A DNA stretch of 5,472 nt from Escherichia coli (lineage in GTDB: Bacteria > Pseudomonadota > Gammaproteobacteria > Enterobacterales > Enterobacteriaceae): assembly GCF_003334315.1 (NCBI RefSeq), contig NZ_QOWR01000094.1; one strand, given 5' to 3'. Position 1 is the first letter of the stretch; each line of letters begins with the position of its first letter. The position numbers and the translations under genes were made by a program. Below are positions 1,379 through 2,821 of this stretch, piece after piece. The notes under the pieces were generated by a model. That model was not told the DNA's origin. It ran no database searches and saw only the letters and a program-made list of their open reading frames with translations.

Positions 1379-2821
1379 ATGAGTGAAGGACCAGGCGGGC
1401 CACAGGGAGCGACCGCAGGCGGTACGCTGGCAATGCGAATGCTGTCACAGCAGGCGATGGTCGCCAGCCAGATGAAACGGGCAGCCAACGACAAAGCCAT
1501 TGCACAGATGCTGGCAGCAAAGAAGTCCGGCCCACCTGCCGCCAGGCTGGGCGATGAAATTCAGCATAAAAGTTTTCTGGGGGCACTGGCAGGGGCCGTG
1601 CTGGGGGCGATAGTGACCATCGCAGAAGGTTGCCTGATTATGGCCGCCTGCGCCACCGGCCCTTATGCGCTGGTTCTGGTGCCTGCGCTGATGTATGCCA
1701 GCTATAAGGCGAGTGATTATGTGGAGGAGAAACAGAACCAGCTTGAATCATGGATAAACAGCTTTTGTGACACGGACGGCGCCATCAATACCGGTTCTGA
1801 AAATGTAAACATTAACGGAAAGCCCGCTGCAAGGGCCGCCGTCACCCTTCCCCCTCCTCCCCCACCTGGAGCAATACCTGAAATCCCACAGGGGGAACCC
1901 TCATGGGGTGATATTGCCACTGACCTGCTTGAATCGGCAGCGGAAAAAGCAGTACCACTGGCGAAGGCCTGGGGGAACGCTGTTATCACCCTGACGGAAA
2001 GCAATGCCGGTTTTATGGATCGCGTCAGCGCCGGCGCATCGCTTCTGTTTCCCGCCGGTCCGGTATTAATGGAGTTTGCCACCATGGTGGGCGGGCGTGG
2101 CGAAATCAAAAAAGATGTGGATTTCCCGGAAGCCGGTGAGGACACGGCGCTCTGCGACAAGGAGAACAAACCACCGAGGATAGCCCAGGGCAGTAGCAAC
2201 GTCTTTATCAACAATCAGCCTGCCGCGCGCAAGGGCGACAAACTGGAGTGCAGTGCGGCGATCGTGGAAGGTTCGCCGGACGTCTTTATTGGGGGTGAGC
2301 AGGTCACCTATCTGGATATCCAGCCGGAGTTCCCGCCATGGCAGAGAATGATCCTGGGAGGAATAACGATAGCCAGCTATCTTCTGCCGCCAGCAGGACT
2401 GCTGGGAAAACTGGGGAATCTGGCGAAACTGGGCAAACTGGGAAACCTGCTGGGGAAAAGCGGGAAGCTGCTGGGCGCAAAGCTCGGCGCGTTGCTGGGG
2501 AAAACAGGTAAGTCGTTAAAAAGTATTGCCAATAAAGTCATCAGATGGGTAACAGATCCTGTCGATCCGGTAACCGGCGCATACTGCGACGAACGTACCG
2601 ACTTCACCCTTGGCCAGACCCTCCCCCTCTCCTTCACCCGTTTCCACAGTTCTGTACTGCCACTGCATGGCCTGACGGGCGTGGGCTGGAGCGACTCCTG
2701 GAGCGAATACGCCTGGGTGCGTGAACAGGGAAACCGGGTGGATATCATCAGCCAGGGAGCCACGCTGAGATTTGCCTTCGACGGTGACAGTGATACGGCG
2801 GTTAACCCGTATCACGCCTAG
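1379..2821 (+). CDS. rhs: N-terminal segment of a prePAAR-TMD-PAAR Rhs T6SS effector; 480 codons ending at an in-frame TAG (2819-2821) that interrupts the rhs reading frame
   Basis: ATG at 1379 with GAGGGA 6 nt upstream. A prePAAR motif AARLGDEIQH (aa 54-63, nt 1538-1567) fits AARxxDxxxH. A hydrophobic Gly/Ala-rich segment (aa ~65-107, FLGALAGAVLGAIVTIAEGCLIMAACATGPYALVLVPALMYA) follows. PAAR motifs are INGKPAAR (PAAR at nt 1823-1834) and INNQPAARKGDKLECSAAIVEGSPDVFIGG (PAAR at nt 2219-2230). An Rhs-core-like start RWVTDPVDPVTG...LPLSFTRFHSS begins at ~nt 2543. The ORF ends at TAG 2819-2821, but the same frame continues open into the YD-repeat region. Confidence 0.9.
   Translation: MSEGPGGPQGATAGGTLAMRMLSQQAMVASQMKRAANDKAIAQMLAAKKSGPPAARLGDEIQHKSFLGALAGAVLGAIVTIAEGCLIMAACATGPYALVLVPALMYASYKASDYVEEKQNQLESWINSFCDTDGAINTGSENVNINGKPAARAAVTLPPPPPPGAIPEIPQGEPSWGDIATDLLESAAEKAVPLAKAWGNAVITLTESNAGFMDRVSAGASLLFPAGPVLMEFATMVGGRGEIKKDVDFPEAGEDTALCDKENKPPRIAQGSSNVFINNQPAARKGDKLECSAAIVEGSPDVFIGGEQVTYLDIQPEFPPWQRMILGGITIASYLLPPAGLLGKLGNLAKLGKLGNLLGKSGKLLGAKLGALLGKTGKSLKSIANKVIRWVTDPVDPVTGAYCDERTDFTLGQTLPLSFTRFHSSVLPLHGLTGVGWSDSWSEYAWVREQGNRVDIISQGATLRFAFDGDSDTAVNPYHA
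2402..2446 (+). repeat. Five tandem in-frame 9-bp units (consensus CTGGGNAAN) inside rhs, encoding (L-G-K/N)n; degenerate copies continue to ~2518
   Basis: Read directly: ctgggaaaa / ctggggaat / ctggcgaaa / ctgggcaaa / ctgggaaac at 2402-2446, followed by ctgctgggg aaaagcggg aagctgctg ggcgcaaag ctcggcgcg ttgctgggg aaaacaggt aagtcg. Protein: LLGKLGNLAKLGKLGNLLGKSGKLLGAKLGALLGKTGKSLK (aa 341-381). Confidence 0.85.

Follow-up and report, generated by a model that had tools for sequence, protein, structure and literature searches.

The first 53 residues encoded by the rhs gene at this Escherichia coli locus (positions 1379-1537, plus strand) are best explained as a translated leader at the N-terminus of a class I prePAAR-TMD-PAAR-Rhs T6SS effector, and as an accessory arm that would lie beside EagR and VgrG. 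Moderate confidence is placed in this overall explanation. The leader would be built of a flexible Gly/Pro-rich tip, a long alpha-helix and a Gly-Pro hinge leading into the prePAAR strand. It appears to be a clade-specific, fast-diverging accessory segment of 27-53 aa, carried by a considerable fraction of the class I prePAAR Rhs effectors and lacking in many others. In the cytoplasmic complex before firing, the flexible helical arm would adjoin the EagR dimer as well as the gp5 needle tip of VgrG, and may help to hold or position the prePAAR/TMD region during effector loading. Because the leader is absent from many effectors, it would stand outside the core prePAAR mechanism, the completion of the PAAR zinc site by the motif.

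The window, i.e., the whole stretch of 5,472 nucleotides that was analysed (contig NZ_QOWR01000094.1 of assembly GCF_003334315.1), belongs to an E. coli chromosomal island with T6SS genes in the order vgrG–eagR–rhs. All features given below are located on the plus strand. The 3' part of vgrG, the upstream gene of the operon, which encodes the T6SS spike protein, is an ORF at positions 7-870 and carries the annotation VgrG tip protein in E. coli genomes nearly identical to the window, which differs from them by two private changes, at positions 2819 and 3421. It is followed by eagR (positions 898-1359), an Eag-family (DcrB/DUF1795) chaperone gene whose product matches Pfam PF08786 (DcrB, E = 1.7e-27) and is named 'DcrB-related protein' by PGAP. 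After a gap of 19 nt the rhs ORF starts at ATG 1379; its product has the architecture prePAAR-TMD-PAAR-Rhs. In the window this ORF is interrupted by a TAG at position 2819 and by an IS element; the YD-repeat ORF extends to about position 4790, and the annotation of an intact allele reads RHS repeat-associated core domain protein. The gene order is identical at four homologous loci. The same 2 kb are present in 2313 of 5426 complete E. coli genomes, sited between cusS and nfrB, and the O157:H7 copy is 96% identical. An in-silico study of EHEC reported an island vgrG1 (z0707)-DUF1795-rhsF (PMC7216683), to which the locus is likened here by gene order alone.

Positions 1379-1537 translate into MSEGPGGPQGATAGGTLAMRMLSQQAMVASQMKRAANDKAIAQMLAAKKSGPP (53 aa, C-terminal end KKSGPP). 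Structure was predicted for aa 1-390 with AlphaFold2 (AF2), using a 77-sequence alignment. The first 12 residues (MSEGPGGPQGAT, positions 1379-1414) form a Gly/Pro-rich tip that is predicted to be disordered (AF2 without secondary structure, mean pLDDT 50); a single substitution, P5L in one strain, was found there among five alleles. For aa 13-48 (positions 1415-1522), rich in Met, Ala and Gln, AF2 predicts one long alpha-helix with pLDDT values of 73, 94, 95 and 77 per 10-residue block. The impression in the earlier note that this stretch looks helical is consistent with the model; the high pLDDT of a lone predicted helix is uninformative on its partners. The core G-x-x-[ILV]-x-x-R-[IM] (aa 15-21), which is weakly common to other leaders, lies inside the predicted helix. 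Residues 49-53 (KSGPP, positions 1523-1537) were identified by alignment as a Gly-Pro hinge between helix and prePAAR. G51 and P52 are invariant in a three-way alignment with the homologs P0072 and P0073, and a G-P pair stands directly before the motif in most leader-bearing homologs.

The prePAAR motif itself, AARLGDEIQH, occupies aa 54-63 (positions 1538-1567), which agrees with the extension of about 53 residues originally reported ahead of it. It is a perfect match to AARxxDxxxH, the definition of the motif by Ahmad 2020 (PMC7773334), and AF2 folds these residues into short strands (pLDDT 96) adjoining the PAAR domain. Pfam PF25799 (prePAAR_I, E = 4.8e-5) aligns aa 54-100 with model positions 4-47 of 57; as the model starts essentially at the motif, the ~50 N-terminal residues lie outside the curated family model. 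TMD1 consists of two hydrophobic helices in the AF2 model (aa 66-91 and 97-110, positions 1574-1708) and aligns to TMD1 of P. laumondii Rhs1 (7pq5_L). The PAAR domain (aa 132-153 and 266-310, positions 1772-2308), recognized by two Pfam PF05488 matches, is split by an insert of ~100 aa (about aa 154-255), which is missing in 7pq5_L and present in P0072, in the Serratia protein (P0073) and in the Entomohabitans protein. A Pfam DUF6531 match accompanies the PAAR_motif, and Rhs/YD repeats follow the PAAR domain. Four sequence features of a class I prePAAR Rhs effector are found here, namely a motif N-terminal to the TMD, a TMD before PAAR, PAAR followed by Rhs/YD, and a co-encoded Eag gene. The motif starts at aa 54, outside the canonical first ~15-20 residues (Tse6, Salmonella Rhs1).

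A Foldseek search of the PDB with the AF2 model returned weak PAAR matches and none for the leader, and NCBIfam contained no family for the leader or for EagR. No MIX, FIX or RIX family was reported by the Pfam scan of aa 1-480 at its reporting thresholds. An RNA element at positions 1379-1537 is without support, as Rfam gave no RNA family in the window; a recent insertion was rejected, the GC content of the leader (0.57-0.61) matching that of the rest of the gene, and so was a signal peptide, the leader being by inspection devoid of a hydrophobic core and of a twin-arginine motif. In scans for promoters and terminators, no signal near the start exceeded the chance level.

Judged from the sequence, the leader is very probably translated from ATG 1379. 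An in-frame TAA at positions 1373-1375 closes the frame upstream and makes this ATG the earliest possible start. A Shine-Dalgarno (SD) sequence, GAGGG, was read at positions 1367-1371, 7 nt 5' of the ATG; it has a duplex energy of -6.4 kcal/mol and is invariant in five E. coli alleles. PGAP places the start at this ATG in each of the six E. coli records inspected. The internal in-frame Met codons are located at aa 19, 21, 27, 32 and 44, as had been listed before. The accompanying statement that only ATG 1379 has a good SD was slightly overstated: the canonical GAGGG is indeed found there, but an imperfect AGGCGGT, 8 nt before the Met19 codon, has a similar duplex energy (-7.1 vs -6.4 kcal/mol). 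This AGGCGGT holds no canonical GGAGG or GAGG and is not kept in the Entomohabitans ortholog. Nothing pointing to an internal translation start was found in the alignment of homologous N-termini or among the alleles. No internal Met is conserved between the orthologs, which makes a conserved internal start near the motif unlikely. The first start after the TAA, the SD, the PGAP start, the open leader in orthologs and the synonymous changes described below all favour the earlier view that the extension is translated.

Homologs were collected by a HMMER search of 1.84 billion representative proteins, and their N-termini were then read; motif positions were tallied by hand and are approximate. 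A word-index search with aa 1-155 had yielded near-identical E. coli fragments only and no useful diversity. Slightly under half of the ~34 distinct N-termini read have a leader of at least 25 aa, and in eleven homologs, among them P0072, P0073, P0079 and P0088, 30-50 aa precede the motif. The starts of several leaders are well delimited in their own loci: in Xenorhabdus, a 33-aa leader with the GDEIITRIARVGA motif follows an in-frame stop located 4 codons 5' of the Met, the start of P0079 has a GGAGG SD, and the start of P0088 overlaps the eagR stop. The model of P0079, a protein of the P. laumondii type, places a helix at aa 3-16, followed by a linker and the prePAAR strands. A further group is leaderless and has its motif in the first ~10 residues; it comprises Salmonella Rhs1, P. 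protegens RhsA and the proteins of Enterobacter, Pantoea, Brenneria, Pluralibacter, Photorhabdus luminescens and several Pseudomonas and Sorangium loci. Leaders are also absent in seven other homologs from the search. Leader length across the family thus ranges from 0 to ~53 aa, and alignment of the leaders reveals a weak common core only, [GD]-x-x-[ILV]-x-x-R-[IM]. On this comparison of sequences, presence, length and architecture of the leader are conserved within subclades, while its sequence is not. The distance of the motif from the N-terminus, regarded as unusual in the earlier note, is so in comparison with Tse6, Salmonella Rhs1, P. protegens RhsA, Enterobacter, Pantoea and several Pseudomonas, but the closest relatives of the E. 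coli module all have leaders of 27-53 aa. The distant motif is a trait of the clade rather than an anomaly; the version found in E. coli, Entomohabitans and Serratia represents the long end of the range. A leader that is ubiquitous and already characterised in the family, the alternative raised earlier, does not fit these results; many homologs are leaderless, and no separate characterisation was found.

Relatives of aa 1-321 were sought in one genome per species. Outside Escherichia, orthologs of the whole module with its unusual PAAR insert were found in two species only, namely Entomohabitans teleogrylli, at 44% identity, and Serratia microhaemolytica, at 43%. The Entomohabitans eagR ends at 1418 and is followed by an SD (AAGGGG) of the leader's own, an ATG at 1450 and a 51-aa leader before G-A-R-F-G-D-P-V-K-H; its only internal Mets are M18 and M30, and Met44 is absent. 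In S. microhaemolytica the contig begins inside the leader, and at least 48 open codons precede the motif. Outside the leader the E. coli module is 44-49% identical to the orthologs. Noncoding DNA at such a divergence would not hold ~50 codons open in the same frame and at the same length, which argues for a coding leader. With the leader only, BLASTP aligned 33 aa of E. coli and Entomohabitans at 30% identity (E = 0.033) and gave no alignment of E. coli with Serratia. It is proposed here to group the E. coli, Entomohabitans and Serratia proteins as a long-leader type, with a leader of ~50 aa composed of Gly-rich tip, long helix and G-P hinge, and with a ~100-aa PAAR insert; the leader lengths are 53 aa in E. 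coli, 51 aa in Entomohabitans, at least 48 aa in Serratia and, as called, 37 aa in P0072, and all four have the insert.

Within E. coli, five alleles that are 96-100% identical were compared. Their leaders differ by seven synonymous changes (R20, S23, L45, K48, S50, P52 and P53) and five non-synonymous ones (P5L, L22Q, Q25R, V28A and A47S), with no indels or stops and with SD and ATG invariant. In the next 74 codons, eight synonymous changes and one non-synonymous change were counted. The resulting dN/dS values, hand-counted and approximate, are ~0.24 for the leader vs ~0.04 downstream. By these counts the leader is coding yet less constrained than the downstream codons. The leader of E. marmotae is identical to that of E. 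coli.

Among known systems, the class I prePAAR effectors of Ahmad et al. 2020 (Salmonella Rhs1-SciW, P. protegens RhsA-EagR1; PF25799) share with the E. coli protein the AARxxDxxxH motif, a two-helix TMD, PAAR, an Rhs cage and an adjacent DcrB/DUF1795 chaperone. There the motif is found in roughly the first 15-20 residues, whereas the E. coli motif begins at residue 54; SciW-Rhs1NT was modelled for residues 8-57, and in P. protegens RhsA the prePAAR and TMD are contained in residues 1-73. In the class II effector Tse6 of P. aeruginosa, the prePAAR is likewise followed by a TMD, which is bound by an Eag dimer, and the motif is required for VgrG binding. Tse6 differs from the E. coli protein in having the motif in its first 15 residues, in its small size, in two TMD regions and in the absence of an Rhs cage. 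Recent reviews of the architecture still speak of an 'N-terminal prePAAR motif' (PMC12881460), and in the literature searched no paper regards the residues ahead of the motif as an element in its own right.

The closest described counterpart is P. laumondii Rhs1 (Jurenas et al. 2021, PDB 7PQ5), which is encoded in the same operon vgrG-eagR-rhs and has the same element order as E. coli, i.e., leader, prePAAR, TMD1, PAAR, postPAAR and Rhs. Its leader of ~30 aa contains a predicted N-terminal helix, followed by PAAAREGDPIKH; the N-terminus of 7pq5_L reads MSLGDEIVTRIARVGARHAVHVSPPQGSPGP-AAAREGDPIKH, with the motif at about aa 33-43. At 53 aa, with a 36-residue predicted helix, the E. coli leader has about double this length, and the E. 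coli PAAR domain has the ~100-aa insert that P. laumondii Rhs1 lacks. Leaders of the P. laumondii/Xenorhabdus type carry a motif G-D-E-I-[IV]-T-R-I-A-R-V-G-A about 20-30 aa before prePAAR. This motif (GDEIVTRIARVGA in P. laumondii) is not found in E. coli, where the weak G-x-x-[ILV]-x-x-R-[IM] core alone is shared and aligns as G15-x-x-L17-x-x-R20-M21; no significant leader-only similarity was detected between the two types.

Jurenas et al. 2021 refer to the first 30 residues of P. laumondii Rhs1 as the 'prePAAR domain', do not set the upstream residues apart, and report that deletion of this domain abolished VgrG binding (PMC8636562). Every 'prePAAR' cross-link in their Suppl. Table 1 (PMC8636562) involves Rhs1 S2 or S23, both of which lie upstream of the motif. 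The partners of S2 and S23 are S74, T112 and S117 of EagR, residues K495-K585 of VgrG gp5 and three gp27 residues, S145, K173 and K181 of PAAR, K226-K275 of postPAAR, and the Rhs barrel (PMC8636562). The cross-links of S2 are promiscuous, with partners ranging from gp27 to the Rhs barrel, and were obtained with protein produced from a plasmid in E. coli (PMC8636562). As S2 and S23 are leader residues, the P. laumondii leader has its flexible place close to chaperone, needle tip and PAAR cone. Cross-links as broad as those of S2 suit a free mobile N-terminus and a docked one equally. By analogy with P. laumondii Rhs1, the E. coli leader would make contacts of this kind, and it may contribute to loading. 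The interaction with chaperone or VgrG suggested in the earlier note agrees with the cross-links of this equivalent leader, and for E. coli it would apply by the same analogy. Against an arm with such a role stand the poor conservation of the leader sequence, the greater amino-acid change tolerated in it than in the next 74 codons (5 of 12 vs 1 of 9 changes non-synonymous), and the existence of working leaderless prePAAR effectors (Salmonella Rhs1, P. protegens RhsA, Tse6).

A translated but neutral leader, a drifting low-complexity appendage with no specific partner, ahead of a prePAAR strand that needs only a free upstream end, is a possible though rather unlikely reading. The fast sequence divergence, the range in length from 0 to ~53 aa across the family, the relaxed constraint within E. 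coli relative to the prePAAR/TMD codons and the promiscuous cross-links of the P. laumondii N-terminus would all be expected of it. It sits less well with the length and architecture kept among E. coli, Entomohabitans and Serratia, which share 44-49% identity overall, with the well-conserved motif GDEI[IV]TRIARVGA of the P. laumondii/Xenorhabdus-type leader, and with a hand-estimated dN/dS well below 1 and an identical leader in E. marmotae.

In the opposite direction, the upstream residues might constitute a distinct unnamed module of a large class I Rhs clade, with an h-x-x-R-h helix that makes a third specific contact to EagR and/or the VgrG needle besides those of TMD1 and postPAAR. Such a contact would be needed for the pairing of effector and spike or for timed chaperone release, and the doubled E. 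coli length would have co-evolved with the PAAR insert. This is offered tentatively and is doubtful as a whole.

It is improbable that the leader helix works after secretion, in the target cell, where together with TMD1 it would aid insertion into or crossing of the inner membrane as a Met-rich membrane-interacting helix. The leader does adjoin the TMD thought to mediate translocation (PMC7773334), AF2 predicts a helix of 36 residues, and L17, M21, V28 and M32 fall on one helical face (by hand, approximate). The helix is, however, weakly amphipathic, with many polar or charged residues (Q24, Q25, Q31, K33, R34, N37, D38 and K39), no membrane-targeting family was found in the leader by the Pfam scan of aa 1-480, and the idea is without experimental precedent, leaderless effectors being able to translocate.

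A mis-annotated start, with an internal Met (aa 19, 21, 27, 32 or 44) in use, the sequence from 1379 onward as 5' UTR and the extension shorter or absent, is the least probable reading and is very doubtful: the five in-frame ATGs, the AGGCGGT before aa 19 with a duplex energy comparable to the real SD, and the public gene calls that begin some fragments (P0028, P0032) at Met19 are outweighed by the 19 nt between the eagR stop and ATG 1379 with its canonical conserved SD, by a frame that stays open for 48-53 codons in orthologs sharing 44-49% identity, by the absence of Met44 from the Entomohabitans leader and by the 7 of 12 substitutions that are synonymous, and a start at Met19 would still leave a 35-aa leader.

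In the textbook view the prePAAR motif is placed at the extreme N-terminus, where the Pfam model also begins; a whole clade is described here in which a leader of 27-53 aa precedes it. This clade includes P. laumondii Rhs1 and a locus that about 40% of the complete E. coli genomes carry, O157:H7 among them. The published 'prePAAR' cross-links of P. laumondii are cross-links of the leader, which refines the reading of those data. The leader also bears on start-codon annotation and on construct design, i.e., on N-terminal tags and truncation boundaries. The basic prePAAR mechanism is unchanged.

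The PAAR domain of the Rhs protein is split by an insert of about 100 amino acids (window 1838-2143, aa 154-255) that is predicted to be mostly helical. In the AF2 model a poly-Pro stretch precedes the three helices predicted for it, and pLDDT values are 50-70. The orthologs of the N-terminal module from Entomohabitans and Serratia and the homologous protein P0072 also have the insert, and it occurs together with the long leader (residues 1-53, ahead of the prePAAR motif). It is present in the E. coli Rhs protein, whereas P. laumondii Rhs1 lacks it. All cross-links of P. laumondii Rhs1 labelled 'prePAAR' involve S2 or S23 (PMC8636562, Supplementary Table 1). 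Both residues lie upstream of the AARxxDxxxH motif, and therefore none of these cross-links informs on the motif itself.

Tandem repeats with periods of 9 nt and 21 nt were identified in the postPAAR region of the Rhs ORF (window 2402-2476); they encode the Lys/Gly/Leu-rich stretch GKLGNLAKLGKLGNLLGKSGKLLGAKLG. The postPAAR region is the second binding site of the chaperone EagR in P. laumondii Rhs1 (PMC8636562).

Similarity of the Rhs ORF to intact alleles ends at approximately position 4786. In the region ~4786-5472 the ORF enters an AT-rich element of the ISAs1 family (transposase ATG at 4928), and the toxin/immunity end of the locus is therefore absent. In near-identical genomes the gene is labelled by PGAP as a pseudogene with a missing C-terminus. 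A 1.15-kb contig assigned to a 'Collinsella sp.' metagenome-assembled genome (L005, JAIJJM010000894.1) is 99% identical to the E. coli gene; it is probably a contamination of that bin.

The Rhs ORF is interrupted by an in-frame TAG (window 2819-2821, + strand) and ends after aa 480. Since the closest E. coli genomes read CAG at these positions, the C-to-T change at 2819 is private to the window; a second private difference from these genomes is located at position 3421. The stop codon detaches a prePAAR-TMD-PAAR ORF from the Rhs repeats, an arrangement that resembles the split two-ORF effectors noted by Ahmad et al. (PMC7773334).
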